This document shows, piece by piece, positions 11,499-29,447 of a DNA stretch of 64,000 nucleotides; position 1 is the first letter of the stretch, and every line of letters starts with the position of its first letter. This DNA comes from Giardia intestinalis (taxonomy: Eukaryota), in NCBI GenBank assembly GCA_000002435.2, contig CM018792.1; one strand, given 5' to 3'. The notes below the pieces were generated by a model, which worked only from the letters and a program-made list of their open reading frames with translations, was not told where the DNA came from and did not search any database. The position numbers and the translations under genes were made by a program.

Positions 11499-11544
11499 GG
11501 GAAATCAAAAGTTTTAGCAAAGTTTTAGATCTGGGAATTTACTA

Positions 11545-13968
11545 TCACTTGTCCAACTTCTTCAGCAGCTCACTGTTTTCACGCGTAAGACGCTTAACTG
11601 TATTCATTAGCTCTGTACGCGCAGCTATGGAGTAGATCTCTCCCTGAGGCATGCCTTCTACCTCAAAACTATAGAGAAAATCGTCAATTCGAATCCTTTT
11701 ATAGTCAAGCATGTAGAATGCTCTGATCATTCCGAAGAGCTCCATAAACGCTCTGAGCCGCTTTTCCTTGTCCTCTGCATGGTTGACGCCAATCTTGACT
11801 CTTCTTCGACTTTCATTAGCAAAGATTGAAAGCGTACTCGACGAATTGGGTAGTGGTACGGGATTTAGAATATATCGTATCAATGATATTGTGCTTATTT
11901 CGGCCATAACATTCCTCTCAATGGATGCATCACGTGACTGATCCCCTTTCGCAAACACATCTGAGAGTGCTGCATACTCCTTGGTAAGCTTCCCAAACTT
12001 TTCCTTAAGTACCTGGTATTCCATATATACTTTTCTAAACTCTTCTACAGTAAGCCCGCTATCCTTTTCACTTTGTTTGTATAACAGATCCCTCTCTTGA
12101 CGCAACCGATCTGCGTCTTCCTTTAGTGCACAGTTCTTGTCTGTCAGTTTCCTATTTTCTGCTTTCAAAATGATATTAGATTTTTGTAACTCTGCAATGG
12201 TACGTTGCATAGTGTCTTGCCTCGTCTCCATCTCCTTGATAAGAAGAGTGAGACTGCTTTCCTTTTTGTCCATCTCGAGCTTTAGCTGCTCCGCTACTTC
12301 GACAGACATATGTGTGGCAGAAGTTAAGGCGGTCGTAATTCCACTAGCAGCTGTGGAAGAGCTGATGAGTTGATCTATGTTACCATCTGGCCGGCTACTC
12401 TTGTTCAGCTCGGCACGAAGCTTCTCGTTTTCATTCTTCAGTGCCATATATGCGGAGACAGAGACATTGGGTACCGATTGGAGACTTGCTTCCTCTAGAG
12501 TACGCTGGGTTGCGTGTAGCTGCTCAGATTTTTGGATGACTTCCTTTTCCAATGCATCTATTCTTTCCAGCAAGCGTTCATAGGCCAAAGGTAGCTCTGT
12601 TTGAAGAGCGGAACTAGACGGTGTACCAGGAGAAGTGTAGCTTTTTTGTCCATGTTCATGCAGATGCGTACGTGTTCCCTTCTCTTTTGTGGTGATGCTG
12701 CCGTTCCTGGTTGCATCAGGTGACTCTCCCGTGCTACCAGACTCTAGCGTGCTATTCCCCAGAGATGCCAAAGCAGCCACACTGAGAGGCGACTCTTCAA
12801 ATAGTTGCTTACAGTTCAAACAGATCGCTTTTCCATTTAGAAACCGGGACATAGTCATCGCCAGCTCATTTATAAAGTTCTTTACCTGGCGCAATGTCTC
12901 GTTAGACTCATTAATCCCGTTCATAATGTAATCCTGATCAGACTTGGCGTGAAATGAGAGCTGAAGAAGTTCGGTGAGCATGTGGATGGGGTCTTCTGCT
13001 AGACTAGTGGCCTGTGGTTTGGCATGTGACTCATCTCGACCCGAATTGAGGCGCATTAAAGAGTCAGATTGATTTAGACGCGTGCTGTTGTGTGGACTAT
13101 GTAACTCTGTAATAAGCTGATCTTGAATGCAGTCTCTAACCAGTGCGCTGGCAGCGGAGTAAGTTACCTCGTCAAGAGAAAGGTCTTGCAACAACGTGTC
13201 GTTGTGGGCTATTAGCGTCAAGAAAATGTGCCGCTGTACAGTCCTGTTGGGAGACGAATCCATGGAGAATCTGTGTGGGCATGTTATAATGTGGTCATTA
13301 TATAATTTAAATAGGGTATCTGAAAATGTGCAGCCCTTCTGTGCATAAGGACAGCGGGTTATCAATCTTGTTTGTGTTTCTTCTAAAAGTATGGCGTCAA
13401 CTAGGGCCAGACCTATTCTGTCTGTACAAGCAGGGCACGAAAAAGATCGCTGATCAATGGAGGCAACCCCCTTCTCAATGCAAGTGGAACATACAACGTG
13501 GGTGCACGGATAGATAATTATGGGCACAAACAGGATCTCTTTGCAATGAGCACATCGAGCTAGGGAAGCCTCGGTGTCATGCGATTCTGATAGTAAAGCA
13601 TCATGCTTTAAAGGACCAGAAGAAAGAGACATGGGATCTGCTCCTTCTTGATTCAGAGGTACTCCAGCTGAGGTAGTACATTCACTAGAAACAACCGTTT
13701 CCGTATTTAACGCCACAGGTTGCACATCCCCCCTCAGATGGTAAAGCAAATAGTCGTTTGGGAGCATGATCAGTGGGTTGAACCTACCATCATTGAGTAG
13801 GCAAACGAAGTATTTGAGGACTTGGGATAGATGAGCCATCACTTGCTGGTCCACTTCAAAAGTCCGAATGGCTCCCGTGCATTTCATGATAAGAGTCTGA
13901 ATACAATGGGACTCGACGTTACTATCGCCTTCTATCCCTAGTGCAGACAAAATACCGAATGCAGACAT
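11545..13968 (-). CDS. RING-finger / TRAF-type zinc-finger coiled-coil protein (putative E3 ligase)
   Basis: C3HC4 RING CAHCKEILFV...YPCTHVVCSTCIE...FSCPACTD, followed by a C/H-rich element RCPYAQKGCTFSD...HIITCPHRF and ~400 aa of coiled coil. The track start at 14046 is TTG; the first ATG is at 13968 (MSAFGIL...), so the start is uncertain. Confidence 0.55.
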   Translation of the reverse strand: MSAFGILSALGIEGDSNVESHCIQTLIMKCTGAIRTFEVDQQVMAHLSQVLKYFVCLLNDGRFNPLIMLPNDYLLYHLRGDVQPVALNTETVVSSECTTSAGVPLNQEGADPMSLSSGPLKHDALLSESHDTEASLARCAHCKEILFVPIIIYPCTHVVCSTCIEKGVASIDQRSFSCPACTDRIGLALVDAILLEETQTRLITRCPYAQKGCTFSDTLFKLYNDHIITCPHRFSMDSSPNRTVQRHIFLTLIAHNDTLLQDLSLDEVTYSAASALVRDCIQDQLITELHSPHNSTRLNQSDSLMRLNSGRDESHAKPQATSLAEDPIHMLTELLQLSFHAKSDQDYIMNGINESNETLRQVKNFINELAMTMSRFLNGKAICLNCKQLFEESPLSVAALASLGNSTLESGSTGESPDATRNGSITTKEKGTRTHLHEHGQKSYTSPGTPSSSALQTELPLAYERLLERIDALEKEVIQKSEQLHATQRTLEEASLQSVPNVSVSAYMALKNENEKLRAELNKSSRPDGNIDQLISSSTAASGITTALTSATHMSVEVAEQLKLEMDKKESSLTLLIKEMETRQDTMQRTIAELQKSNIILKAENRKLTDKNCALKEDADRLRQERDLLYKQSEKDSGLTVEEFRKVYMEYQVLKEKFGKLTKEYAALSDVFAKGDQSRDASIERNVMAEISTISLIRYILNPVPLPNSSSTLSIFANESRRRVKIGVNHAEDKEKRLRAFMELFGMIRAFYMLDYKRIRIDDFLYSFEVEGMPQGEIYSIAARTELMNTVKRLTRENSELLKKLDK

Positions 13969-14163
13969 GAAAATCCAGAACCCTGTCGATCTATTTTTAA
14001 CTTTGGAATTTGCCTTTCTGTCTTTCGCTTTTTGGATGTCCTTCAATCTTATTTCAAAGAGCTCTCAAACATGTACGCGTCCGCTGGCAACCTTTTAGGA
14101 TACGTTAGTCTGGTCACAAATCTTTAGCATCAAATTTGAGTGTCTGGCTTGCATAGAGAAAAA

Positions 14164-14664
14164 ATGGCGCTCAGCTCGTCCCAAGTAGCCATTCTGAAGG
14201 AAGTCTTTTATATTTATGAAGATCCCGCTAAGCGTAGTGGTCCTGTTCGGGATGATAGTGTAGACCCTACTGGACGAATACGAAAGTCTGACCTTCTCCG
14301 CTTCCTACGTGCTCTGGGGTTGCCATTTACTCTTAAAGATGTTGCTGATTATACTAGTCAATACTCAATAACTGGTAACTCTATATCGTTTACGGATGCT
14401 GTTACATTGGTGACGGCTTGGAAGCGCTCCAGCCACCCTGATCCCTCTGATGCCGTCTCTGTCATCTTCAATGCATGTACTCCACGAGACGGTGTAATTA
14501 CAATTCAAAAGTTGAAATCTGTCATTTGCAGTTCAGCCTTGGAAGATGGCATCACGCCTATGGACTTTGATCTTTTGATCTCCGATCACGGGTTTTCTGG
14601 GAATTCAGTGCTTACGCTCCCGGATCTCGTGAAGCTTCTTGGGCCTCCTACTCCGTTGATATAG
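14164..14664 (+). CDS. Small EF-hand-like (calmodulin / light-chain-like) protein, probably with degenerate Ca-binding loops
   Basis: The track start at 14140 is GTG; an ATG lies at 14164 after an A-rich leader. LKEVFYIYED...GRIRKSDLLRFLRALGLPFTLKDV resembles the EF-hand pairs of myosin or calmodulin light chains. Confidence 0.35.
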   Translation: MALSSSQVAILKEVFYIYEDPAKRSGPVRDDSVDPTGRIRKSDLLRFLRALGLPFTLKDVADYTSQYSITGNSISFTDAVTLVTAWKRSSHPDPSDAVSVIFNACTPRDGVITIQKLKSVICSSALEDGITPMDFDLLISDHGFSGNSVLTLPDLVKLLGPPTPLI

Positions 14665-14692
14665 AACCTTTGTTAAACCTAAAAAGTAAACG

Positions 14693-16291
14693 ATGGACGA
14701 GAACGGCCGTAAAATACGTCCGTTCCCGCCCACGGGAATAGGTGCAGACTCTCGGCAAGGATCCATTAGTAGCACAGGACCAGGACAGCGGTCACGGGGT
14801 GCATGGCCCCACGTTTCTCAATACTCTACCACATATCCAGATGCTGCTTCTGCCTCCCTTTGCAACCCCTATCAGACGAACTTTACGTCATCTCAAGCTG
14901 GGCAACCCAGATATTCAGAGCACAGCGTCTATCCTAATACTCTAATTTGGACCCCTTCTACCAGCTCTTTGAATCAGGAAATACCCAATGTTGAGCAGCA
15001 GCAACAGCAGCAGTACGTGCCAAAAGATCGAACAGCTCTTCCACGACACTCCTTGCAGCCAGGTCAATCACATTTTGTGGGGCCTTTTCAAGATCCATCA
15101 TCCTATACAATCTCGTCATTTGAGAACAATCCACAGTTTCAACCGAATAACCCCAGTGCATATCCACAGTCTCAGACACCGATAAGTAACATTATCACAC
15201 AGACCCCCAGTCTAATGTATCATCCCCAAGCCTATGTCCCCGTGCCATCCATGTCCATGCCTCCGCAGTTGTACTCACACCCCCCTGCCTTGGCTGACCA
15301 GCAATCGATCGGCTATGACACAATTAGTATGGGATCCGTGCAGCCAGTTGCGTCCAATTCCTTGATACAAGAGATTCTTGCCCGCATGCGAATTCTTTAC
15401 ACCTCTCTCTTTAATCTATACACAAATTCTAATAAGGTTATGCTAGCATATCGGAATTCTCAGGTGTTTCAGGTATATTACGACATATCTATGACGATGT
15501 GGTATCTTGGGAAGACTACTTCAGAGATAATTCAGCTAATCACTAGTTCTATCGCGTCCTCGTCAACGTTGCCTCTTTCCATGGACGCAAATTTGGGCCT
15601 TGGCAGCACCTCAAATTCTATATCTCGCTTGGCAAATCCTCGGACCAAGGAGGACTCTGTAATAGAGACGGAGCCCAAGGCCACTATCGACGCCTTTGCC
15701 TCAATCATCACCCATACAAAAGACTTTCTTGGATCAGACCCGGTTTATCCGCATGCAGAAATTACATTCGAAAAGAAGTCCACTGAGGACCGGATTGCAG
15801 AGTTAGAGTCTAACTTACGAAGGATGATTAAGCACATCTATGGCGAATTAGACGTTGATGCAGTGCTGGAAGCAGCCGGGTTAGCCTCGCTTGTTGCCGA
15901 GAAGGCTACCCCTAGTGCAACTATAGGTTATCTCACAGGAGCTGATGAGGAACCGGTTTATTCTAAGGATGTCCTCTTGGCAATGGATAAGAGCCAATTG
16001 GTAGAACGGATAGAGGCGCAGAATGCAATCATTGACACTCTACGACACACTTTTAGTCTAGTAACTGCAAATATTACGACGCTATCTCGAGCCTCAGTTC
16101 CTTCGAACGCGATGGGCGCGACTGATGAGCTGAGCAATACTACACCACCTGCTGTCAGCACATTAATGAAACAGTTAACTGAGCGCACTACGCAGTTGGC
16201 ATCTGCCCAGAGACGGCTCTTGACAGCAGAAGCAGAGCTACGGTGCCTTAGAGCTGAACGTGAGCAGCAGCACCCAGTGTCTACAAGCTAG
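14693..16291 (+). CDS. Q/P/S-rich hypothetical protein with a C-terminal coiled coil
   Basis: ATG start. A low-complexity Q/P/S-rich N-terminal half (including EQQQQQQYVP) is followed by a heptad-like C-terminus (RIAELESNLRRMIKHIY...; LTAEAELRCLRAEREQQ). Confidence 0.45.
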   Translation: MDENGRKIRPFPPTGIGADSRQGSISSTGPGQRSRGAWPHVSQYSTTYPDAASASLCNPYQTNFTSSQAGQPRYSEHSVYPNTLIWTPSTSSLNQEIPNVEQQQQQQYVPKDRTALPRHSLQPGQSHFVGPFQDPSSYTISSFENNPQFQPNNPSAYPQSQTPISNIITQTPSLMYHPQAYVPVPSMSMPPQLYSHPPALADQQSIGYDTISMGSVQPVASNSLIQEILARMRILYTSLFNLYTNSNKVMLAYRNSQVFQVYYDISMTMWYLGKTTSEIIQLITSSIASSSTLPLSMDANLGLGSTSNSISRLANPRTKEDSVIETEPKATIDAFASIITHTKDFLGSDPVYPHAEITFEKKSTEDRIAELESNLRRMIKHIYGELDVDAVLEAAGLASLVAEKATPSATIGYLTGADEEPVYSKDVLLAMDKSQLVERIEAQNAIIDTLRHTFSLVTANITTLSRASVPSNAMGATDELSNTTPPAVSTLMKQLTERTTQLASAQRRLLTAEAELRCLRAEREQQHPVSTS

Positions 16292-16411
16292 CTTTGCTGA
16301 CGAGAAAGTGCTTATCATGACATGCATGATTATCTAGTATAGCTGTATCAGCAGTACTGTTAGGTTCTTCTTGTATCATGGAAAGAAGGCGGTTGGTAAA
16401 AAATAATTGTT

Positions 16412-17818
16412 ATGGCCAGTCGTCAGACTCAGTTTGCCTTAGAGAAAATGGTACCAGAGTTCACCGCATACAAGCGGGCTAAGGTGTTCCAGCCAGAGGA
16501 GTTGGTCAAACTCGTTCGTCGGCGAAAGGAATTTGAAGAAAAACTTAATGCAGATCTGCCCCCCTTAAGGCTCTTCCTCCAGTATATTATGCATCTGCAC
16601 TCTACATACAAGCTTGCGGCAGATCGATGGGTACAGCTAGGAAACTCGAAAGAGGAGCTATTTGAGGAGGCCCGGAGTGTTTATGTTAGGGCAAGCGGAG
16701 TAGTGGATCTCGCCATTAGACGTTATAGAGGGAACCCAGAAGCGTGGCAGGCTCTTCTAGAGCTACTTGGACGTATCAAAATGTTGGATAAGCGAGCCAC
16801 TGTTGCTCAGCTTTATCTGCAGACTTTTCCATCAGATGCCGAGCCTTGGATCTTGGCGGCCCATATTGCTGAAGAGACTGAGGGCGTCACTCATGCACGT
16901 AGTATTTACCAGCAGGCAGTCAAGTCGATTGGCTTACTCTCCGGAGTCACACTGAATGGCCGATACCATGGATCGGGACGCTCAGGAATCGCCAACACAG
17001 AAACAAACAAGCGCATTGTTGAGGTTGCTATCCGCAGGAAATTGGATTCTGTTCGAGCAAGTACAGACCCCCAATTGATGCTGTCTCCCTGGAAGCGATA
17101 TTCTTCACTTATCATCAATTGGGCCTGCTTCGAGGTGCGGCATATAGCAGCGTTACGCGGAAAACACAACGAGAAAAACTACCTCTCTGATTACATCATT
17201 GATAAAAGATTTGATGGGTCTCCATATATGCAGAAGATACTTCAAGGGGAATTGGTTGCCATCGTCCTGAGACGAGGAATTATCGCCGCCTTAAGTGTTA
17301 CTAAGCTACCAGGCATACCCGATAGCATTGAATTTGATCTTCTAAGTGCGTATGAGCAGGGGAAAATGCCATACCTAGATCACCCGACAGAGTATAGAGC
17401 GATTTGCTACACGAGTATTGACAGGATATTGAGCTCTCCACTTGTTGAGGCCTTTCTGAAAGATGTGTATGAAGCACTAGAGCCCATTTGTGTGCAGAAC
17501 AAATGGGTGTCTTGGTGGACCGATAGAGTGCTGAATTGGGCTCTGCAGAAGACAGCGGCAACGCTTCAAAGAGCCATTGAAACAGAGGAGCTTTCTGTTT
17601 TGAAGAGGTATCAGGTTGAGACCAGCGCTGTTCATCAGTCTGCGTTTGACTGGTTAAGACATCTTAATAACGATGATTATAGTAACGATCCGCTCAGAAA
17701 TGTAGCTGATTCTATCTCCCTGGAGGACCTTCAGCGTTTGCAGGAGAGGATCAGCACTGCAATGTTAGACTTGACCGAGACACAACACAAAGACCTCGAT
17801 GTACAAAATCTCGAATAG
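16412..17818 (+). CDS. UTP6: Utp6-like HAT-repeat protein (U3 snoRNP / SSU processome component)
   Basis: The N-terminus MASRQTQFALEKMVPEFTAYKRAKVFQPEELVKLVRRRKEFEEKLNADLPPLRLFLQYIMHLH matches the conserved Utp6 N-domain pattern: vQ..LE.mvPEle.lerkg.F...Ei..i..kR..FEykL.rr...k.dfl.YI. HAT/TPR-like repeats follow. Confidence 0.6.
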   Translation: MASRQTQFALEKMVPEFTAYKRAKVFQPEELVKLVRRRKEFEEKLNADLPPLRLFLQYIMHLHSTYKLAADRWVQLGNSKEELFEEARSVYVRASGVVDLAIRRYRGNPEAWQALLELLGRIKMLDKRATVAQLYLQTFPSDAEPWILAAHIAEETEGVTHARSIYQQAVKSIGLLSGVTLNGRYHGSGRSGIANTETNKRIVEVAIRRKLDSVRASTDPQLMLSPWKRYSSLIINWACFEVRHIAALRGKHNEKNYLSDYIIDKRFDGSPYMQKILQGELVAIVLRRGIIAALSVTKLPGIPDSIEFDLLSAYEQGKMPYLDHPTEYRAICYTSIDRILSSPLVEAFLKDVYEALEPICVQNKWVSWWTDRVLNWALQKTAATLQRAIETEELSVLKRYQVETSAVHQSAFDWLRHLNNDDYSNDPLRNVADSISLEDLQRLQERISTAMLDLTETQHKDLDVQNLE

Positions 17819-18853
17819 TGTAAAGTAAATCCCTCTGGGTTTAAGGATTTTGTACGCGCCCGTTAAGATATTAGCGGAAAGAAATGCCCACTGCCCTCGG
17901 ACAGGTGGGACTGAGTCATGAGGGCAATGTACGGTGAGGATCCAACAGCAGTATGTTGTTGCCAACAAAAGAAACACAACAGCGGGAGACATAAAATGGG
18001 CATTGACACCCGCCTGGGATGGGAAGTAGAAGAGACAAAGTAGGACTAGGATCATTAGATGTTTCAGGTTCTTATTAGAATGATCTTGGGCTATTGTGAA
18101 TATAAGCTGCGTGAGCACATGTAGCGGGAAGTACCCTAGCAGCGCAGCCCATGGTCCTGCAAATCTCAGTACTGGGTTCTGCGGATAAAATGATAAAATC
18201 ACCTGGTTTAATCCCATCAATGTACCTATACATAATAGGCTTTGGGTTCTTTTTAGACGCTTTGCCAGGAAACCGAGGACGCGCACCAAAAGCATTGTTA
18301 GAAAGGAGTTCCAATATGGACCGTACTCTTCCTTATCAGCGCCTGGAAGATAGAAGCCAATACAAACCCGCACGATCCCTGCAACTAAAAGATATAGTTG
18401 TCCCTTCCAGTATGGACAAGAGCGATTGATAGAGCTCAGTGAATCACTAATTATGAAGTAACCTAGACCTGTATCCATTAAGCTTAACTGGCCTGCTTCC
18501 CAAGTGCTTTTTCTATGTTTTGCTGGAAGAATTCCCGTATCAATCTCATGAATACAGACGGCCGTAAAGCCAAGGGTTGCTAATCTTAATGCTCGTCTAA
18601 AGTTACTGGAAGTAGAGGCGGTTGCAATTTCAGTTCCTGTACAGTGCGATCGAAAGTACCTGGTTACCGCATATAACGCTATACATTCAATGGCTCCCCC
18701 ATAGGAGGAAAGTAGTGTCAGAGTTACAAGAACGCAGAGCCGTCCGCGAGGAGCAACTAGAACGACCATGTATCCAGAGATCACAGTAGTTATTGTGTCA
18801 ACAGTCTTAAGTACCGGTGGAGAAACGTATAACAAGGAACCTACCCACGCCAT
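17765..18853 (-). CDS. Multi-pass membrane protein, GWT1/PIG-W-like (GPI inositol acyltransferase) candidate
   Basis: About 10 predicted transmembrane segments. The motif EEYGPYWNSFLTMLL resembles the conserved EYGvHWNFFfTL box of GWT1/PIG-W. The ATG was verified. Its 3' end overlaps the convergent Utp6 CDS by 54 nt. Confidence 0.45.
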   Translation of the reverse strand: MAWVGSLLYVSPPVLKTVDTITTVISGYMVVLVAPRGRLCVLVTLTLLSSYGGAIECIALYAVTRYFRSHCTGTEIATASTSSNFRRALRLATLGFTAVCIHEIDTGILPAKHRKSTWEAGQLSLMDTGLGYFIISDSLSSINRSCPYWKGQLYLLVAGIVRVCIGFYLPGADKEEYGPYWNSFLTMLLVRVLGFLAKRLKRTQSLLCIGTLMGLNQVILSFYPQNPVLRFAGPWAALLGYFPLHVLTQLIFTIAQDHSNKNLKHLMILVLLCLFYFPSQAGVNAHFMSPAVVFLLLATTYCCWILTVHCPHDSVPPVRGQWAFLSANILTGAYKILKPRGIYFTLFEILYIEVFVLCLGQV

Positions 18854-18928
18854 TTCTATTGCTCACTGACTGTAGAGAGCAGACTGTTTAGCCTAGAACC
18901 ATATTATTCAGTAGTCAAGTTCACTCAA

Positions 18929-19855
18929 TCAGGGGGCACCTGACCCCAGGGCGGCCCGCAGGCCCGCGACCTCCCCCCGGAGCCGGGCGACCTCGTCCTC
19001 CAGGGCCTTGAAGCGCAGGGCCGTCGCGACCGCAGGCGCCCCGCCCTCTGCGTCGAGGAGCTCCACGAGGGCCGCGGCGGTGAGGCGGCGCTCCGGCTCC
19101 AGGACGAGGAGGTGGGCGAGGACGCCCCGGACGACGGGGTCCCCGACCGCGCCCAGGTCCGGCCGCCAGCCCGCGACGTAGACCTCCGCGGGGGCCCGCC
19201 CGGAGAGGAACGGGGGCCTGCCGCCCGCCGCGAGCTCGTAGGCGACCATCCCGAGGCTCCACATGTCCGCGGCCGGCGTGTGGCTCCCGCCCCGCAGGAC
19301 CTCCGGCGCGGCGTAGACGGGGACGGCCATGGAGGCGAGCCCCCCGGGGCCCTCCCTGCAGAGCCCGAAGTCGGAGATGGCGAACTCCGCCCCGGCCTCG
19401 TCGAGGAGGACGTTCGCGGGCCGCAGGTCGCAGTGCGTGAGGGCGGGGAGCGGGGCGCCCGCGGCGTCGGTCTTCCCGGGCCGGTGGAGGTAGGCGAGCC
19501 CCGCGCCCACCTGGCGGAGGACGGCGACGACCATCTCGCGCGGGGCGAGCTGCCTTCTGCGGCGGAGGCTCCGGATGGCCCCGTCGAGGGAGCCTGCGTA
19601 GCGCCGCATCTCGACGTAGATGTAGCCCTCGTGCCGGACGACGCGCCCGTACTCGACGACGTTCGGGTGGCGGAGGCGCGGGAGGGTCCGGAGCTCGAGC
19701 TCGAGCGAGGCCTGCGCGTCGGGGGGCAGCCCGTCGGTCGGGATCTCCTTGACCGCCCGGTCGGGGGCGCTCTTCAGGCCGTAGACGGTCCCGTGGGCCC
19801 CGCTCCCGAGCTCTGCGCCCAGGTCTTCGAGGAGGGCGTCGATGGCCTCGGACAT
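18929..19855 (-). CDS. NEK-like Ser/Thr protein kinase with a C-terminal coiled coil; extremely GC-rich
   Basis: GSGAHGTVY (Gly loop), AVKEI (VAIK), HCDLRPANVLL (catalytic loop), SDFGL (DFG), APE, DMWSLG, then LEDEVARLRGEVAGLRAAL. ATG at 19853-55. Codon third positions are almost all G/C. Confidence 0.7.
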   Translation of the reverse strand: MSEAIDALLEDLGAELGSGAHGTVYGLKSAPDRAVKEIPTDGLPPDAQASLELELRTLPRLRHPNVVEYGRVVRHEGYIYVEMRRYAGSLDGAIRSLRRRRQLAPREMVVAVLRQVGAGLAYLHRPGKTDAAGAPLPALTHCDLRPANVLLDEAGAEFAISDFGLCREGPGGLASMAVPVYAAPEVLRGGSHTPAADMWSLGMVAYELAAGGRPPFLSGRAPAEVYVAGWRPDLGAVGDPVVRGVLAHLLVLEPERRLTAAALVELLDAEGGAPAVATALRFKALEDEVARLRGEVAGLRAALGSGAP

Positions 19856-20906
19856 CTTTTTAATCCGCGACTGGGCGATTGGGTGGGCTCAATCGCTTGG
19901 GCTCAGATCGGGGCCTGTATAGGTCTACAATGGTCACCGTGGCAGTCGTTGTCTCCCTTCTCATCATAGCGGCCGTCGCCCTCACATGCTGGCTCGTCCT
20001 GCGGAGGCGGCGGGGATCGAAGCCGATCTCGAAGAAGAGGGCAGCGGCCGAGAACGTGGAGCTCATGGGGACGGTGGACGAGTTCTAGCTCTGCGGCTGG
20101 CGGGCCGCAGCTCATAGAGAGTGAATGCTTAGGGCCCGGATCATCCCCTGGACTGACGCCCAGCCCCTTGCAAGCGCCTCCCGGACCGCCAGATCGTGGC
20201 CTGCCCCCAGCGGGTGGGTGCCACCGGCCTCTCAGTGCACAAACCTCAAGCTAGGGTGCAGGTAAGAAGACAACTTTGGTCATCGCGCCTCAGATGACCA
20301 TACTGCTGCCACAGCAGCGAAGCTGAGAGTGTACTAGGTACTATGTTGCCACGTTCCTGGTCGAGAGGCCAGCCGTGATATCCATAGGACCGGACTCTCA
20401 GGGACTGACTAATACTTGATTCAGCCAACGGATTGTATTGGACGTAAAGAGGTAGCGGACATCTACCTTTACGACTCACTATAGATCAAGATACAGGAAC
20501 CCATTGGGCTGATCCTTGGTTTCGCACGTAGCTGACGGTGAAGTACACGATGGATACCGCGACAGTCGAGAAGAGAGAGTATTGCTGTAGATTGTATTGT
20601 GATTGAGATACACAATCAGCAGGGCAAAAATCTGCAAATAAGGAGCACAATATGATACAGAAGTAACAGAGATTGCAGGGAGCAGTACTACTTAAACACC
20701 TTGTAAATGGATTGGACAATATCAGGATTTTCAATTTCAATTCATAGATCCTCGTATGTAATGTTGTGGATTTACTCAAGTTTCCCAAAAACTAGTATCA
20801 GCATCCAATAATATGGTAAAAAGATACACAGCAGTATTATTCAGCACTATTAAGGTCAAAGATTTTCTAATGGATTTATTATTAAGCAAGACAACAATTT
20901 CTCTGA

Positions 20907-22418
20907 ATGCTGGTCTTATTACTTCTCTCCGCCATTTTATCATGTGACATGAATACACCTTTCACTGAGGAGCCCAGCCATGGGATGGGTGTGCGTTTCA
21001 CTCAGCGTGGATTGGAGAAGTTTTGTCAGAAAGGTTATGCTATTATTCCTGATATCATCTCTGCAATGCCTTCACTTCAGGTCCCAGAAGTAACTGTTGG
21101 ACCTCTCAAGTTTACTTTGTCAAATGTCAAACCTCGCGCAGCGCGCGTCTCGACTATGAAGGTTCATTTGCAGGACAACAACTTTGTCAAGATGGAGGCC
21201 CGGGACGGCATCATGCAGATCTCGATGCGGCTTAAAACTACCATCACTGGGATCACCGGGACCGTCGACTGCACCTTCACCCTCAAAGACTTCGGGGCAG
21301 ACATCTCCCTGAGGATCGGAGATGACCCCACCTGTCCCTATCACTTCGGGCTCTTCGAAATATTGAATGTCATATACTCGTCTGGGCTCGACATCGATGC
21401 CATCGGACTCGACACAGGCGGATCTGTCCTTGCAACTGCCATCCAGGGCATGGCGCCCACGTTGGAGACCTTAATAAAGGACACCGTACTGCAGTTCCTC
21501 TTAGATACCATCTTTAAGTCGATAAAACAGTCAATGCTTAATTTGGGCCTTGTTGCTTATGTTGGTAATTATTGCACTGATCAGCGTTATATCGGCGGGA
21601 TCAATATCATCGACAACAAGATAGTGGCAAACCAAGGAGGATATTCTATGATTGAAGATCCAATGGATTGGCCCATCCAAAAAGTCTATCCAAACAAGAT
21701 CACCTCTCCTCCTCCAAAAACAGTCTACACTAATCGAGACTATGAGTTCTATCTTGACAGAGAGTCTTTTAACTCTTACTTATACATCTGGCATACGAAG
21801 TACGACAAGTTCAAGGCAGACGGTCTCACTGTTCCGTACAGCACCATCAGGGCGCAGAACATACCCGGCCTTGCAGAGGCTCTTGTGGAGGCCGGACTAC
21901 TAAACAATGTTAACGACCTTGGACTCGGGGTCACCTTGACTCTGTCGGTCAGCCCCTCCAAGGACACTGCTCCCCACATACCGTGGATCGGGGCGGCTGC
22001 ACTACCGGTCAACCTCACGGGGGCACTCGTTGTGACAGCCAGCAAGGCTTCCACCTCTGCTTCTAAACTGTTGGTTAGTGCAGAAGGCAATGTGCTCTTC
22101 TCTGCTCGACCTCGACTGAGAAAGCACACGTATGGGTTTAACAACGACCAAGCCCGTGCATACTTAGAACTCACTGAGCTAGCTAATATCACCATAACTA
22201 AGGAGGATAGAGGAGCCATGCATGAGTCCGAGCCCCTGCTGAAGTATCTAGTTCTAAACAAGTACCTCCCTTTTGTCAACAGCATTCTCATTGACCCAGG
22301 AGTATGCCTCATGAACGGGAACTTCATTGATCTTGCTAGCGTCACTCCTGTTCAGTTGTGCGACGAGGACAGGGTGCTTTTCGTCGCCGACATTGAGAAG
22401 AATCAGTACTTCACTTGA
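20907..22418 (+). CDS. Secreted BPI/LBP/CETP-family lipid-binding protein (BPI-like)
   Basis: ATG after an AT-rich leader. Signal peptide MLVLLLLSAILS. The N-terminal region (GLEKFCQKGYAIIPDIISAMPSLQVPEVTVGPLKFTLSNVKP...) resembles the BPI N-terminal barrel (ikipd.sg...lg...y.f.sl.i..f.lp). Its ~500 aa length is typical of the family. Confidence 0.55.
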   Translation: MLVLLLLSAILSCDMNTPFTEEPSHGMGVRFTQRGLEKFCQKGYAIIPDIISAMPSLQVPEVTVGPLKFTLSNVKPRAARVSTMKVHLQDNNFVKMEARDGIMQISMRLKTTITGITGTVDCTFTLKDFGADISLRIGDDPTCPYHFGLFEILNVIYSSGLDIDAIGLDTGGSVLATAIQGMAPTLETLIKDTVLQFLLDTIFKSIKQSMLNLGLVAYVGNYCTDQRYIGGINIIDNKIVANQGGYSMIEDPMDWPIQKVYPNKITSPPPKTVYTNRDYEFYLDRESFNSYLYIWHTKYDKFKADGLTVPYSTIRAQNIPGLAEALVEAGLLNNVNDLGLGVTLTLSVSPSKDTAPHIPWIGAAALPVNLTGALVVTASKASTSASKLLVSAEGNVLFSARPRLRKHTYGFNNDQARAYLELTELANITITKEDRGAMHESEPLLKYLVLNKYLPFVNSILIDPGVCLMNGNFIDLASVTPVQLCDEDRVLFVADIEKNQYFT

Positions 22419-25400
22419 GTATTCATATTTATCCCATCTGGCACATACACAAGGAACCAAGCTATATCCGCGAACGGCCTCCTTTGAATAAAGAACGCCA
22501 TCTCCGGTTTAGTTTTTAATGTAAACTCTTGTGCAGACTCTCGAGCGTGTGCTGACCACGGCAGCCGGTACCGTTGTCTAGCAGTCTCATACTAGAATGC
22601 AGGGTCATGCATTGTTTCAATAGCAGGTATGAGCAATACCGCACTGAGAACTGCACAGGCCAGAAAGATGATGGTAGCTAGCGAAGATGCTCAGTGTTTA
22701 ATAAGGCCTCGTACTCACAGACCATGGTCCACACCAATACGTGGCTAAGATATACACAGATCGATGACTTCTCAGGAGAGAACTAGACAAACTAGTGAGC
22801 AGGAGCACAGCAGTGTACGGTTAGCATTGCACAAGCAAGGTAGCAGACAACACAATGGAGTCGGTGAGAATGGCGTCTAAAAGGGAGATGGTGCATGCAG
22901 GACCGATACACGAGCGCGCAGGATAGCGCAATCCTTCTAACAAAACTCGAGACGCTTGGGACCGAGCAAGAACTGGAGATGGCCATGCATGAAGTTCAGC
23001 TCCCTTGCGGCTATGGAAGGACAGTAGCATGCTAGTCGTTACATACACGTTCCCAAAGGTTGTGATATCACGATGCATACAACCAGCAGATCAATAGGAT
23101 GGTTTGCTGGACAAAGTGCCTTCCCATCGTATTGAGAACTTCAGTGTGCAGATGAAGCAACGAGGCGCACATCCCCACACTATAGGTGACGGATGGACGA
23201 GACGATATGAGAGCCTGAGGAGAGGCAGCAAATAAGTGCCCGGTGGTATTAGCAATACCATTAGTCTCTATGCCCATAGTAGCGTTCTACAGTGGAAGGA
23301 CCAGATGTTCATGGTACTAACGGGCAGTGGCTCGATGGGTAGATCAGTCGTAGCTTGTAGACTCCTAAGGCTATCCAGGTGGAGCGGTGGGTCAAGGCAA
23401 GGACAACTCCAAGCTGTACTAGAAGGTAGCGCTGGGTACCATTCCAACCCTCGGAGGATGCTTCCAAAACGACTGCACAACTCGACGAGGAGACACGTAG
23501 TCGTGCTAGAAGTTGCTGGTCCAGGCTGGTAGCTCTGGATAAGAAGTTGTCTCCCAGTGTTGTCTGCAGCAATAAGATGGACCTCGAGTGCGCGCACGCT
23601 GCCGCGGACTGTCGCCCTGCCACTCGGAGGGATGCGGTGGACCCGCTCGTGGTAGAAGGCAGCGAGGGCCTACGACGTCCTTCCAGTGGGCGCAGGAGTG
23701 GCCAGCGTCAGCTGTGGGGCCGCTCGAACAGGCTCAGCCCTCGTACCGGCTCCTCCCCGGCCGCTTCATTCACGGTGCCACCGAGAAGACGCGTGCCCTG
23801 ACTCGCGAACCAAGGCGCTGACCATGGAGCAGCGACATGCGGTAAGTAGAGTACAAAAAATCCACAACACCGGCAAGCGATGCACTCGGGCAAAGGTGCC
23901 TCCTGCCTCGGGAGATCATGCATCTAGACACCGATGCTGCTCTTCCGTTGCTGCGGCTCCAGGCTTCCAGATAGTCCGGCCCTTTCCAGTATCACACATC
24001 CTCTTCTATCTGACATGAGACCAGGACTACGGTGCTCTGAGCTCTGAACGTCGCCCTATGGGTGTGGCGGAATTTTACAGCCCTCACTGTCGAGCGGCCT
24101 TACCCATAGGCATCCCCACAGCTCAGGGCCAGCAGGCGTAGGTGGCGCCCTTGCAGTGAGCCCCAGAGAACAGCCAGCGCGGAGTTTGATACGATCCTTA
24201 TCATACCTCGCCAGACCTGGTCGAGAGCGCCCCCATTTTCCATAGAATGGCCCCCAACACAGTCCCAAGGCTGGGCGTAATGGGCAGCCTTTGGATTGCA
24301 GGGCGACACAGTGGATACTAGTGCACCCCGGCGAGACCTTGTGACCTGCTTCAGAGGTTGCAAGAAATGCCCGTCTCTGGCCTACGTTTGTGCTAACGCT
24401 ACGGTTTCAGAACGAAGCGAGGGAAGAACGCCTTGCCAGGCTCCGTGGTAGCCCGTCTGTTTGGGAGACTGCAGATTACTGACTTGTGCGAGGCAACCGG
24501 AGGAGCCTGCTAGGCCAGACTACGAGGACTATGAGAGCCGCGGACATAGCAGCCACACGGCCCCTACCTTCTTTCGGCTTCTCGAATCTCAGTTGGCGCA
24601 TCTGGCTGTGCACGACTCTATTTCCCTTTGTCAGGTGCATGGCGCGAGGGTAGAGCAGCCCAGTCACAGCGTTCAACGCGTCTACTGCTGGATGGGCCCG
24701 AATAGTAGAAGAATGCCTATGGGTGTAATGACAGCGGCGATTCACGGGCAGTCCACGATTGTACGTTCCACAGCCACCGACCGGAGTAGCCTTCGACTGG
24801 GCGTGTCTATACTAAGCCGTGGGCTGCTCTTCGAGGCTCTAGATGCGTTTGATCCCTGCTCATGCATCCTGGCCTTATGCCTGCGGGTCTTTGGCTCGCA
24901 GCTATCTGGGCTTTGTCTACCATGGACCGTTCGCTATGTATCCTTGTTCCTGGAAAGCCCTCTAATGGCTGACAGAACAGGATCACAGGCTCCTGTGTCG
25001 CCGCAGTACGTGTCCGTTTCCTTCACCAGGTGATCGTACTCTCGCAAATGACTCTGCCACCGGCTCTGTCGTCTTGGAAGAGTCTATACTGCAGGACTTC
25101 CCGTGAACTGTTTCTATGCAGATTAGAAATCTTACGTGCTTACCAACGTAGGGATCCAATAACATGGCGCCATGCTCACAGTCCCAGGGTCACCAGACAA
25201 TGGAGCACGGGGCTGAGAAACTCAGATTGCAGCAGTCCAGCTCTTGAGAATCCCTGCATATATTAGGACAGAGTGACTGGGCTAGCACACAGTGACATAT
25301 TGAACCAGCCAGAGAGGCAAACAATCTCCTCTCATGTAAGACCCCTGTATATCTAGGGCGCCCAGACCATCTGAACTCGTAGGCATGCATCCAGTTCAAT

Positions 25401-26869
25401 ATCGGTAATCTAAGCACTGATAGACCGGTTGTGAGGCAGAGCCAGTGCCGACCCCAAGAGCTCAACTGCTCTGAGGCAGCACATTGTAGGCTATAACATT
25501 CTACACACTTCTGCTGATCGACCTCGCGCTCCAGCTGGCGGCAGAGGAGTGCACAGAAGTAGCTGATGGCCGCCACAGCCACTGCACGGGCCTCCAGGGC
25601 AGGGGGTCTCTCTGCCACTGCAATCTGCAGCAGCGTGGGGGCCGCCCCGTGTGCTGCCCCCTCTGCCGTAGCGGGGCTTCAGGCATGCCATCGGGACTGT
25701 CCGACGGTCGCCGGTTGGGCCCTGTGTGACAGCAACAGACGAGAAGACTGTCCCACAACGACATGCCCTCGCTGGAGGACTGTCAGCAGGGCGGGGGAAG
25801 CTGCGGCCCACTGGGCGGGTGAACGATCTCCGTGGGTCCAGGCGCACTTCACTGCGGGTCTGTCGGCTCAGGCTCTGATGGGCGCCGCGATCGCTCTGCC
25901 CGGTCTGGCAGATCACGGGGGACCTGAGGCCGGCCTATTGGGAGGAGGACCGGGACCCTCGCTGATGGTCGAGCAGAGTCACCACAGGGGGGCATGAGCT
26001 CGAGTGAATGAGGGCCCTCTTAGCAGCGCGCATGTCAACCGAGCAAGGAGAATGACATAGCAGACACCAAAGGAGCCATGACCTTCTGAGCCCTCTGAGG
26101 TTTGTACTAGGCTCGCTGGGCTTATCAATCTCAGGCTCTGGTTCGCTCGAGTGAGCACTGCAAGGGTGGGAAGGGAACCTAAATGGAGATAAGCCTCCAC
26201 AAGTGGCGGACAGAGTATCTGTGATCGACACTTGCCACTGATGCTGTCTGGCAACTTGGCTTCGAGAGGCCCATTGAGTAGGCACTCCAGGCAGTAACAA
26301 CGCAGTCAGCTAGCCACTGCTCTAGACTGCTCCTGGAGACCTGCAGCGAGGAAAGGCGAAGTCCCTAGAGCTTACCGATGCAGTGCCAGAGCTTATGCTC
26401 TTCTTCGATGATCTGCTGAGGCTATCTCAACGGCTCCAAGATTATGGAGAGGGAAGCTTGATAGTAGGAATTCATAATCAGTGCTGCTCAGGACCCAGTA
26501 AGCCCTCCTCTCCAGTCATGGCGAGCTGCCGGGCCCTGGGAACGTCAGATGGCCTTGCCGATGTGCATGGGCGGTGGGTAAGAGTTCCTCAAATGTCTAC
26601 GGTTCACCGGAGCTGTTTTACTACAGGCTGTCAGGCTTCTTCCATGACATCACAGGGTTTTTGAAGCAGAGGCCCGGCAGAAAGAAGGTGGTGATAAGAT
26701 AGCCAGGTCTCCAGCAGTGCAACAGAGAAGACCCTTGCTCTATTAACCACGACTCGCTTCTGTTTCTGGACACAATCGAGCATTGACTGAAGTTACTCAC
26801 GGGATCCTTGGGGTGTGCTCGTAGGCAAGGGTCCTAGCAGCACAACGCTGAAGATGACTGGTAGACGGA

Positions 26870-27775
26870 ATGAAGAAGTCCGAAGCTCTAGTGCCCACCC
26901 TGCACTGGTGCCCAGCCGGCTACAACCCCACAATTGAAGTCATCTCTCATTGGGCACTTGCCACACAAGGCAAGAAGAGCAGAGGGGATCCAGGGCGTAC
27001 AATCCGTGTTTGGTGCGCTATCTGGATGATCTGTAAACAATACCGTGAATCGCAAGCTTACCAGTACACGCGTTTCCTTTGTGACCATGGAATAAAAATG
27101 TCGTCTACAGATTATTCAGGTCAATTCCTTCAGGAGCACGACTGCGCCCCACCCCTCATGTCTGAGAAGAACACCGACGATGAGTATACGAGCGAAGACA
27201 GTCCCACCGAGTCTTCAGAGATGGATGGTGAAGATGGCGTGGACGAGGACGGCGTCACTGAGCTCATGAAGGCGGCCAGACGAAACGACGTAGATGCAGT
27301 GAAGCGCTATATTCCTCAGCAGGCGGGAATGGTGGCGAAGTTTTTCAGGGCAAGGATGGTAGATATACACGGGGGGACGGCCCTGATGGTCGCCGCGGTG
27401 CTTGGACACGCTGAGGTGGTGAAGCTGCTGATGAAGCACGAGAGCCGCATGAGGAGCAGCAATGAGTACACGGCCCTCATGTGGGCGACAGCCAACGAGC
27501 GTATCGAGGTTGTGAGGCTACTCCTGGATGCTGAGGGCTGCATGGAGAGGGACAGGGGCTTTACTGCCCTCACAATTGCAGCATACTTTGGTTGTTTGGA
27601 CTGTGTCAAAGTGCTGTTGGAGAAGGAGAAGTACATAAGCAGCAGGTCTGCTCTTTGCGTAGCTGATATGAATGGTCACCCCGAGGTGGTGTCTCTTCTC
27701 AAGAGTGAAGGCGTTGGACTGGAGGAGCCCCGTCTACGGATGCCGCCCAGAAAGCCCGTGAGTGAACGCGCCTAA
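26870..27775 (+). CDS. Ankyrin-repeat protein (Giardia protein 21.1-like)
   Basis: At least five ankyrin repeats: GVTELMKAARRNDVDAVKRYI..., GGTALMVAAVLGHAEVVKLLM, YTALMWATANERIEVVRLLL, GFTALTIAAYFGCLDCVKVLL, ...DMNGHPEVVSLLK. The start is uncertain; the N-terminal 100 aa lack repeats. Confidence 0.6.
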   Translation: MKKSEALVPTLHWCPAGYNPTIEVISHWALATQGKKSRGDPGRTIRVWCAIWMICKQYRESQAYQYTRFLCDHGIKMSSTDYSGQFLQEHDCAPPLMSEKNTDDEYTSEDSPTESSEMDGEDGVDEDGVTELMKAARRNDVDAVKRYIPQQAGMVAKFFRARMVDIHGGTALMVAAVLGHAEVVKLLMKHESRMRSSNEYTALMWATANERIEVVRLLLDAEGCMERDRGFTALTIAAYFGCLDCVKVLLEKEKYISSRSALCVADMNGHPEVVSLLKSEGVGLEEPRLRMPPRKPVSERA

Positions 27776-28077
27776 CTGTTGATTGCATCCGACGATGGAC
27801 TAGAATCTCCCTCAGCTGTGCAGCAAACAGACACCTCAATGAAGTGGTGGCTGTCAGTGGATCACGCAGCTGCCCGTTTCCGCAGAGGCCAGGGAGAGCA
27901 GGCCTCCTTGCCCCTGGCCAGCACTGGAACGCCGGTGGGTGAAACGGTCGCACGGGTGGCCTTCTCGCTCCTGATGCAGTAGTCCTCCGCAAGCATTGGT
28001 CACTACAGATCTGTAGACATAAACCTCTGTGGAAACAGATCGTTTCCAAAACGGTAGATTACCAAAATAATACCAGG

Positions 28078-29374
28078 ATGGACACTGCCTTGTCTGGGTC
28101 TGCAACAACAGCTGTCAGTGTCCCACCGTTCACCCCTAGGGAGGTTCATGAGCGGTTAGGTGATGTGCTTAATGAAAACACCATGGGGACAGTCTACTCT
28201 CTCAAAGCTATCTGGGCCTCGCTGTAAAGGTCATTCAGCTTGGAGACCTGGACAAGGATGACGTGGAAATCATCAGACTAGAGCTGACCACCCTCCCCGA
28301 CCTCTCCAACCCAGGGGTTCTCAGGCACCACCAGGTGCTTACGGACGAGGGCTTCACCTACATCGTCATAGACCGCCACGACAAGACCCTCGAGCGCCTC
28401 CTTATAGAGCACAAACGAAGGAAGACTCTCATCCCTATCGCTGTGATCCTCTCCGCCATGAAGCAGGTCGCTGCCGCCCTCGCCTACCTCCACGGCCTCA
28501 GCGAGGTAAGTGCTAACAGGCTTGTCCACCGCGACCTCAGGCCTACCAGCATCCTTATCAGCGCAGACGGAGAGCGCTTCGTCATTGCTGATTTCGGCCT
28601 CTGTAAGGACGCCCTGTGGAGTGGGAGCACTCTCATGGGAATAATGGCGTACATGGCCCCCGAGGTGCTCCTCCGTAATGAGACCAGCCCTGCTTCCGAC
28701 GTGTGGAGCCTCGGGGTCATCCTCTACGAGATGGCCACTCTAAGGAAACCGGACTTCCTAGAAGGTAAAGACCCAGCAGAGGTCTTCGTGACGGGTGGAG
28801 GCCGGACCTGAGCGGTGTCACTGATGGCTTCATAAAGAGTGTTCTGGAGAGGATACTCGTGCTGGAGCCAGAGAGGAGGCCGATGGTCAGGGAGCTGCAC
28901 GAGACGCTCGCTACATTCGACATCCCAGTTAGTGAGCTGGGGCATCGGTGTGTGGCGCTAGAGGACAAGTGCAGCGCCTTGGAGACTGCGATGAGTAATA
29001 TTAATGACAGGATTGCTATTCTTGAGGCGGCCCTCGAGAGCAAGCCGACCAGGGACCGCGCCGAGCTCTGGATGCATCGATGGAGAGGAGCTCTTAGTAT
29101 GTTATCCACAACCAGCCATCGTCTCCGGACGGTCGAGAAGTGGGCGCAGCTTACCCATGAGACCTCTGAGCGCACCTGCAGGCGGGCCCAGCGATACAGC
29201 GACAGCAATGTACAGGAGTGCGCCCCGAACAATCACTCCACAAAGGTGCGTTCTGAGTCTGGCCCTCACCGATCCTGTTCCTATCGAAGCCAGGGGGAAC
29301 TGCGCTATCAGCCGACCTCTGGTGGGTGTGCTCCTATCTTGTCCTTCTCCAGTACAACTGATCAAGGAGAGTAA
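28078..29374 (+). pseudogene. NEK-like kinase paralog disrupted by at least two frameshifts (pseudogene, or assembly indels)
   Basis: Frame 1 reads MDTAL...RLGDVLNENTMGTVYSLKAI and then hits TAA at 28225. A second frame carries AVKVIQL...YIVIDRHD...AAALAYLHGLSE...LVHRDLRPTSILI...ADFGLCKD...YMAPEVL...DVWSLGVILYEM...AEVFVTGG. A third frame (from ~28793) carries GWRPDL...LVLEPERRPMVRELHETL plus a coiled coil. The colinear, intact paralog is the kinase at 18929-19855 (GWRPDLG...LVLEPERRL). Confidence 0.5.
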
Positions 29375-29447
29375 GAGCGGCTGTCTCTCACTGCTCGCGG
29401 CAACACACCAGCCTGACGGAAGAGCAGTGGCACGTGTACTCCGGCTA

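Follow-up and report, generated by a model that had tools for sequence, protein, structure and literature searches.

The 64-kb window analysed here, a stretch of the Giardia genome, contains between a BPI-like gene and a small ankyrin-repeat gene a block of unique, non-coding sequence (22419..27097) which encodes no protein and from which recognisable domain relics, repeats and known RNAs are all absent. We consider it likely that this block is under no detectable selective constraint and constitutes an extended gene-free spacer within a VSP-associated, recombination-prone and lineage-variable island of Giardia duodenalis assemblage A. It is a drifting spacer, not a recognisable relic of a VSP, a kinase or a retrotransposon, and it varies between isolates regardless of any reading frame.

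A first-pass annotation, made from the sequence alone, had described the greater part of this block (22419-26869) as a 4.4-kb segment without any credible ORF, and this description holds, there being no stop-free run of 200 codons or more and no codon-usage, period-3 or Pfam signal. With the standard stop codons, no stop-free run of at least 200 codons is found across 22416-26857 (4442 nt), which is far longer than any other such stretch in the window (the next longest measure 1443, 1373 and 940 nt). The longest stop-free run spans 193 codons (24452..25030, plus strand) and is a chance ORF, and the longest ORF beginning with ATG is 143 aa. As a run of 193 codons was attained in 9% of simulations under a first-order Markov model of the same composition, its length is within chance expectation. 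At 55.5%, the GC content of the block exceeds that of the window's core genes (43-49%). High GC makes stop codons rarer, and hence would yield the many short overlapping ORFs on both strands. Stop codons number 312 in total, 2.7 sd below the Markov expectation of 359 +/- 18, a deficit that could stem from local GC heterogeneity. The first kilobase is purine-rich on the plus strand.

The right-hand end of the block had been placed at 26869, directly before an ankyrin ORF that opens with an ATG at 26870. In isolate DH, however, this ORF is interrupted by stops, so that its first 76 codons are not open there; the start common to the window and DH is 27098, from the equivalent of which a 222-aa ankyrin protein is called in DH. 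Because of the DH stops within these 76 codons, the gene-free stretch probably reaches 27097, giving 4.68 kb in all, in which 26870-27097 corresponds to an extension of the ankyrin ORF that DH does not share.

Might an unusual, a short or an intron-containing protein-coding gene nevertheless have been missed in the block? It does contain several ORFs of 100-190 aa, and the low stop total noted above points the same way, but we regard this possibility as extremely improbable. The best-frame codon log-odds of the block (-0.068) matches that of shuffled sequence (-0.070) and is far from the gene median of 0.156; codon bias is absent from every 300-nt window of the block. A codon-periodicity test, which the first-pass annotation had recommended, places the block at background, with a period-3 power of 1.3 compared with 9-23 for genes and 7.8 for a neighbouring stretch with a kinase-like fragment. 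Six-frame comparison with Pfam at E<=1 gave no matches at all, whether to reverse transcriptase, integrase, transposase, VSP, kinase or ankyrin domains, or to the endonuclease by which a retrotransposon relic, of GilM, GilT or GilD for instance, might be recognised. When the longest run (24452-25030) was searched exhaustively with HMMER against 1.84 billion representatives, the only match was P0035, itself an 81-aa ORF call from an orthologous ENA contig (L021). A word-indexed search with all 19 stop-free runs of at least 80 aa, joined by X, returned nothing, though it is unreliable in that it missed P0035. Only about eight cis-spliced introns exist in the entire Giardia genome (PMC7000408), which further argues against an intron-interrupted gene.

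Comparison between isolates had likewise been proposed. The block is colinear with positions 11513-16192 of sequence L001 from DH (assemblage A2), where the DH annotation calls no gene, and contig L021, from an ENA metagenome, is colinear with it and covers part of its length; it is present in at least three independent assemblies. This colinearity, with the independent DH assembly as well as with L021, shows the block to be real and inherited, and leads us to reject an assembly artefact. Over 22419-27097, identity with DH is 95.0%, the alignment showing 227 substitutions and 9 gap columns. At the DNA level, core genes share about 99% identity with DH, and divergence in the block (4.9%) is roughly five times that of the core (0.98%) and patchy, with a variance-to-mean ratio per 100 nt of 3.5 against 1.09. 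Some sub-blocks match DH as closely as the core does (about 1%), but these are uninformative on function because the A1/A2-level baseline is so low. GC content is 55.52% in both isolates, and differences between weak and strong bases number 100 in each direction.

The 210 substitutions against DH in 22419-26869 fall on the three positions as 58/79/73 (p=0.19), with no mod-3 pattern, and there are seven single-base indels; in the adjacent BPI-like gene the corresponding counts are 42/28/80, with the third position enriched (p=5e-7). The longest run has two stop codons in DH, and its changes are 10 non-synonymous to 4 synonymous. None of the twelve stop-free runs of at least 111 codons shows constraint: nine acquire stops or indels in DH, while the three that stay intact show mostly non-synonymous changes and, with 4-32 changes each, have too few to show constraint. 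Tallied over the twelve, which overlap and so share sites, there are 162 non-synonymous and 63 synonymous changes, with ratios for individual runs from about 1:1 to 4:1. A protein-coding gene is recognised by a long ORF that shows codon bias and a period-3 signal, and by conservation of its ORF between isolates with an excess of synonymous change; the block has neither.

The block lies within a larger variable island. The window is 99-100% identical to four other Giardia sequences (L006, L015, L016 and L017) as far as 19907..19922, a synteny breakpoint that opens the island. Beyond it, L006 and L015 carry a 157-aa ORF plus NOG1, and L016 carries a different 396-aa gene (P15 has a VSP-like 3' end); DH alone follows the window. 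Exact look-ups of U3_6, the 532-aa ORF and the kinase recovered only short Logan contigs, ending at or before about 19922. From this breakpoint the island extends to a three-gene VSP array, and includes both the block and a truncated NEK kinase; the whole of it is absent from the same position in other A-type and E genomes. Strain-specific insertion or deletion, one of the options raised initially, is supported for the island as a whole only, the breakpoint not being located at the edges of the block. The statement that spacers elsewhere run from a few nt to a few hundred nt is correct for the core but fails for the island, where other ORF-free stretches reach 0.9-1.4 kb. Third-position GC in island genes is 54-65%, compared with 43-49% in the core.

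On the left the block is flanked by the BPI-like (lipid-binding serum glycoprotein-like) gene (20907..22418, plus strand), whose Giardia homologues are named 'Lipid-binding serum glycoprotein C' or 'BPI-like', the best being 88% identical (DHA2_152144). Only its ORF body (20917-22411) matches a paralogue at a core location (L002, 86%). On the right is the ankyrin-repeat gene (27098..27775, plus strand; 226 codons; Pfam Ank_2/Ank). Exact-protein look-up found neither flanking protein on record. There follows a NEK-type protein kinase fragment (28284..28811, plus strand), a pseudogene matching only positions 45-196 of 263 in Pfam Pkinase: a stop cuts the window copy off after some 175 codons, against 648 aa in the DH orthologue. 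DH ceases to be colinear with the window at 29030. The VSP array (29004..35563, plus strand; Pfam PF03302) is linear and head-to-tail, comprising 29004-31829, 31897-33660 and 33722-35563, with CRGKA-stop motifs at 31812, 33643 and 35546 and internal spacers of 67 and 61 nt; within its first gene a 225-nt tandem repeat is present six times. From the block to this first VSP, downstream of it, is a distance of 1.9-2.1 kb, which is occupied in part by the ankyrin gene and the kinase fragment. A VSP array nearby, a synteny break, patchy divergence at five times the core level and no sign of coding constraint all support the suggestion, made at the outset, of recombination-prone filler characteristic of VSP-bearing regions.

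A second possibility is that the block derives from a gene or mobile element, or from several, perhaps of GilD-like non-LTR or BEL/Gypsy/Mariner type, whose remnants have decayed past the point of recognition. Such a reading addresses where the DNA came from, and can hold together with the spacer explanation. Genes are decaying in the island, as the NEK kinase and a kinase-like fragment at 35949-36234 attest, the GC content of the block is gene-like and not AT-rich as in typical short Giardia spacers, and, as noted, its first kilobase is purine-rich. Retrotransposon relics (BEL/Gypsy/Mariner) are moreover known from VSP intergenic regions (bioRxiv 10.1101/2022.03.07.483299; PMC3091692). We nevertheless think such an origin possible but rather unlikely. 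Gene fragments near the block are still detectable, retaining both a Pfam match and periodicity, whereas the block has no codon bias, no period-3 signal and none of the Pfam domains listed above. We found in it no direct, inverted or tandem repeats, and no hairpin-forming arms, terminal repeats or poly(A). With blastn and tblastx, neither the remainder of the window nor 224 kb of other Giardia loci proved similar to the block, and two exact-match scans of JGI metagenomes with fully conserved 27-30-mers from the block were empty. The proposal of a decayed gene or VSP remnant in particular finds no backing: the block has no six-frame match to PF03302 at E<=1, tblastx against the VSPs of the window is likewise empty, and the CRGKA-stop motif, even with two mismatches allowed, occurs only at the three intact VSPs. 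A VSP relic is rejected on these grounds. Recent transfer from bacteria was also considered, and is rejected given that there is no intact ORF and no Pfam match, and that the homologue of the longest ORF is found only in the orthologous contig.

Alternatively, the block could be a functional non-coding locus, such as a lncRNA, a source of small RNAs, or a chromatin or boundary element in the silencing or one-at-a-time expression of the downstream VSPs. Its retention in several assemblies and the wide transcription reported in Giardia (PMC1885649) are consistent with this, but transcription alone is no proof of function because sterile transcription is pervasive in Giardia. Rfam covariance models gave no match in the block at the gathering threshold or even at E<=1, no tRNA was found, and folding z-scores, with a mean of -0.06 and no value below -3, centre on zero and are weaker than those of a coding control. 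Hairpin-forming arms are lacking, as noted above, the block has diverged five times as much as the core and carries indels along its length, and the entire island is missing from the same position in other A-type and E genomes. Our search of the literature on Giardia lncRNA and centromeres found nothing relevant. We therefore judge a functional locus very unlikely; that the block, whose colinearity extends to at least two assemblage A lineages, might be a non-coding element in epigenetic one-at-a-time VSP control is likewise very unlikely. Any role would most plausibly be a passive one, setting the distance or the chromatin context ahead of the array's first, expressible VSP.

If the block is an extended spacer of the island, how might it have arisen? 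Its DNA may have been put together by the ectopic recombination and duplication through which such islands are built and reshuffled; those events would also have copied in the body of the BPI-like gene, truncated the NEK kinase and placed the VSP array adjacent, and the block would have been drifting since. Its GC content may reflect a regional substitution equilibrium common to the neighbouring island genes, and GC-biased gene conversion would be compatible with the raised value. Exchange between haplotypes that are old and diverged is probably the best account of the patchy, elevated divergence.

The significance of the block beyond annotation is small: it should stay unannotated, and neither its short overlapping ORFs nor the 76 codons that extend the ankyrin ORF at its N-terminus are genuine. 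Were it true that such spacers act in VSP silencing or switching, this would be important, but no result here points that way.

The block can be compared with three known kinds of Giardia DNA. The first is GilD, which Arkhipova and Morrison, whose 2001 paper is cited in PMC7000408, reportedly described as a family of 'dead' non-LTR retrotransposons. Like GilD, the block is kilobase-scale, has no intact ORF and lies in a non-syntenic region; unlike GilD, it has no reverse-transcriptase or endonuclease similarity, no poly(A), no terminal repeats and no second copy in the window or the 224 kb of other loci. Second, pseudogenes of Cys-rich (VSP/CRMP) and other families occur in non-syntenic regions, the published ones having been recognised through BLASTX similarity, CXXC motifs, or transmembrane and CRGKA remnants (PMC3091692; bioRxiv 10.1101/2022.03.07.483299). 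The block sits in the same kind of neighbourhood and likewise has no intact ORF, but it differs in lacking any PF03302 match or CRGKA-stop motif.

Third, the surroundings of VSPs are gene-poor and more variable in a genome of 46.3% GC (PMC7000408). VSP-flanking intergenic regions have a median length of 1280 nt and a mean of 2131 nt, compared with 79 and 392 nt genome-wide, some exceed 5 kb, and GC is higher upstream of VSPs (bioRxiv 10.1101/2022.03.07.483299). The block departs from these regions in not adjoining a VSP, and from several published examples in having no retrotransposon relic or VSP-like similarity. In four respects it resembles them: it lies near, and upstream of, the first VSP of an array; it runs without genes for several kilobases against the 79-nt median; its GC is 55.5% against about 45-46% genome-wide; and raised divergence between isolates accompanies a synteny break and members of the NEK, ankyrin and VSP families. 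Since long, GC-richer, gene-poor and variable DNA around VSPs has already been described in Giardia genomes (PMC7000408; PMC2996952; bioRxiv 10.1101/2022.03.07.483299), the block is ordinary, a well-characterised case of the long, GC-richer, fast-diverging spacers that accompany Giardia VSP arrays and synteny breaks.

The first-pass annotation described positions 22419-26869, between a BPI-like gene (20907-22418, +) and an ankyrin gene, as a 4.4-kb GC-rich segment without any credible ORF in a gene-dense genome. The absence of such an ORF is borne out: in 22416-26857 every stop-free run is shorter than 200 codons (standard stop codons), and no other stretch of this kind in the window is as long; the runners-up (1443, 1373 and 940 nt) all lie within the same variable region or close to it. 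The longest stop-free run of the block is 193 codons (24452-25030, +), a length reached in 9% of 500 first-order Markov simulations, and the longest ATG-initiated ORF is 143 aa; the same type of simulation predicts 359 +/- 18 stops, against 312 observed. GC content is 55.5%, compared with 43-49% for the core genes, and the many short overlapping ORFs are attributable to this raised GC. The gene-free stretch is probably longer than first noted. In the window the ankyrin ORF is 301 aa from an ATG at 26870, but its first 76 codons (26870-27097, +) are not open in DH, an assemblage A2 isolate. Because the DH frame contains stops upstream of the gene, and the start codon common to both lies at 27098 (226 codons in the window, 222 aa in DH), the gene-free stretch probably spans 22419-27097 (4.68 kb), the N-terminal extension being probably non-coding.

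Evidence for coding was sought in several ways. On a codon log-odds scale learned from 17 of the window's ORFs, the block averages -0.068 in the best of six frames, the same as mononucleotide shuffles (-0.070) and against a median of 0.156 for genes; its maximum (0.038) falls just under the shuffles' 95th percentile (0.039). Period-3 spectral power is 1.3x background, against 9-23x in genes and 7.8x in neighbouring 35564-37584, a stretch with a kinase-like fragment. Six-frame translations with stops masked matched no Pfam family at E<=1 save two chance-level matches, and VSP, kinase, ankyrin, reverse transcriptase and transposase were all absent at this threshold; the block lacks periodicity and recognisable domains, as had been claimed. 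Within the island the CRGKA-stop motif, allowing up to two mismatches, occurs only at three intact VSP ends. An exhaustive HMMER search of the 193-codon run against 1.84 billion representatives gave as sole match an 81-aa ORF call from L021, an orthologous ENA metagenome contig. When all long runs of the block were concatenated, a word-indexed search returned nothing, but it also missed this 81-aa protein and so provides no reliable negative. An overlooked coding gene can effectively be ruled out. A putative RNA or chromatin role has a low prior probability. Rfam yielded no match in the block, whether at the gathering cut-off or at E<=1, no tRNA was found, and folding z-scores, computed for 120-nt windows of each strand, have a mean of -0.06 and never fall below -3, a weaker signal than that of a coding control. 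Searches for direct, inverted and tandem repeats in the block came back empty, and comparing it with the remaining window sequence and with 224 kb from other Giardia loci revealed no similarity.

The right-flank ORF encodes an ankyrin-repeat protein (Pfam), and the left-flank ORF has Giardia homologues that their sources call 'Lipid-binding serum glycoprotein C' or 'BPI-like'; the exact sequences of both flanking proteins have no record in the collections searched. Downstream lie three VSP genes matching Pfam PF03302 ('Giardia variant-specific surface protein'), at 29004-31829 (+, 941 aa), 31897-33660 (+) and 33722-35563 (+), and a ribosomal protein L10e gene (37585-38217). The first VSP gene carries six tandem copies, 98-100% identical, of a 225-nt (75-aa) unit (29511-30866, +). 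A single colinear alignment joins window 10917-29030 to DH contig AHGT01000038, with core genes ~99% identical. Because of this colinearity and identity, and the VSP, ankyrin and BPI-like matches, we identify the window from its sequence as a Giardia duodenalis assemblage A-type chromosome. A GWT1 (GPI-anchor wall transfer) homologue at 17765-18853 (-) has no gene call at the matching DH position, and in homology searches its NCBI-sourced proteins came from P15 only; in some Giardia genomes the gene may lack annotation.

DH carries the block at the same place, with no gene called there, and L021 spans 23796-25245, matching DH (98.8% identity) slightly more closely than the window (97.7%); from the block's presence in both, we conclude that the block is real and inherited. 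Between window and DH, 22419-26869 shows 210 substitutions (173 transitions, 37 transversions) and seven indels, each of a single base. Substitutions are distributed 58/79/73 by position modulo 3 (p=0.19), as opposed to 42/28/80 in the BPI-like gene (p=5e-7). No constraint is evident in the twelve longest stop-free runs: nine are broken in DH by stop codons or frameshifting indels, the 193-codon run by two stops, while the three intact runs have just 4-32 changes each, mainly non-synonymous. Summed over the twelve, which share sites where they overlap, there are 162 non-synonymous and 63 synonymous changes (~1:1 to 4:1 in single runs).

Comparison of A-type loci places the block in a lineage-variable island. 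Four loci (L006, L015, L016 and L017) are 99-100% identical to the window as far as 19907-19922 and then differ: a 157-aa ORF and NOG1 come next in L006 and L015, an unrelated 396-aa gene in L016. Beyond the breakpoint P15 has a VSP-like 3' end, and only DH keeps the window's order. The same kinase gene has at least three different continuations in assemblage A-type assemblies (these four loci and L012), and L015 is 100% identical to the window across the 11 kb before the breakpoint, yet continues otherwise; structural polymorphism, segmental duplication or assembly chimera could account for this. That kinase gene (18929-19855, -), which abuts the breakpoint, has 76.8% GC and a GC3 of 97.1%, against 43-49% GC3 in core genes; the bias recurs in orthologues, with GC3 values of 92.6% (DH), 95.6% (P15), 95.8% (an A-type scaffold from ENA) and, for a more distant lineage, 75%. 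GC-biased conversion at a putative recombination hotspot would fit. Immediately past the breakpoint, a 52-codon ORF (19930-20088, +) encodes a hydrophobic helix and basic tail (MVTVAVVVSLLIIAAVALTCWLVLRRRRGSK...), and resembles a membrane protein's C-terminal end (transmembrane segment plus tail) severed by rearrangement. The match between the BPI-like gene and its paralogue in a core location is confined to the ORF body. Downstream of the ankyrin gene, a truncated NEK-type kinase (28284-28811, +) covers only positions 45-196 of Pfam Pkinase, stops after ~175 codons where the DH orthologue has 648 aa, and runs into the first VSP; DH colinearity ends at 29030, where this head-to-tail array begins. 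A second NEK-type fragment (35949-36234, +) resembles the first in short stretches, at ~71% identity.

Divergence from DH is 0.98% in the core (10917-19855), with mismatches per 100 nt Poisson-like (variance/mean 1.09), but 4.9% in the block (variance/mean 3.5). There, segments at a 1% baseline are interspersed with clusters in which 100 nt hold 6-17 differences, and overall divergence climbs to ~8.5% in 25500-26869. The flanking genes diverge likewise: the ankyrin gene is 83% identical to DH, and a 250-nt core of the BPI-like gene (21500-21750, +) just 68%, against 93-99% at the gene ends, which suggests gene conversion from one of many BPI-like paralogues. We infer that this patchiness reflects mosaic ancestry, with diverged haplotypes or paralogues having exchanged sequence, and not constraint. 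Block composition is stationary, since the two isolates share a GC of 55.52% and weak/strong differences number 100 each way; this level lies above core GC3 and near that of island genes (54-65%, against 43-49%).

The best explanation, which we consider likely, is that the block is spacer DNA, inert and drifting, in a VSP-associated island prone to recombination; a decayed gene, a mobile element and duplicated non-coding DNA are candidate ultimate origins. Giardia genome GC is 46.3% and mean intergenic length 477 bp, and regions around VSPs tend to gene-poverty and more allelic variation (Xu et al. 2020, PMC7000408). A 2022 preprint (bioRxiv 10.1101/2022.03.07.483299) puts the median length of VSP-flanking intergenic DNA at 1280 nt (mean 2131), whereas the genome-wide median is 79 nt (mean 392); some examples exceed 5 kb, GC is higher upstream of VSPs, and relics of pseudogenes or retrotransposons are frequent. 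Jerlström-Hultqvist et al. (2010, PMC3091692) associate breaks in synteny with VSP genes, Protein 21.1 (ankyrin) genes, NEK genes and hypothetical genes. Although it is not directly adjacent to a VSP and has no detectable relic, the block shares every feature of these VSP-associated spacers that could be tested, and is thus of low interest as an instance of an already-described class of VSP-region DNA.
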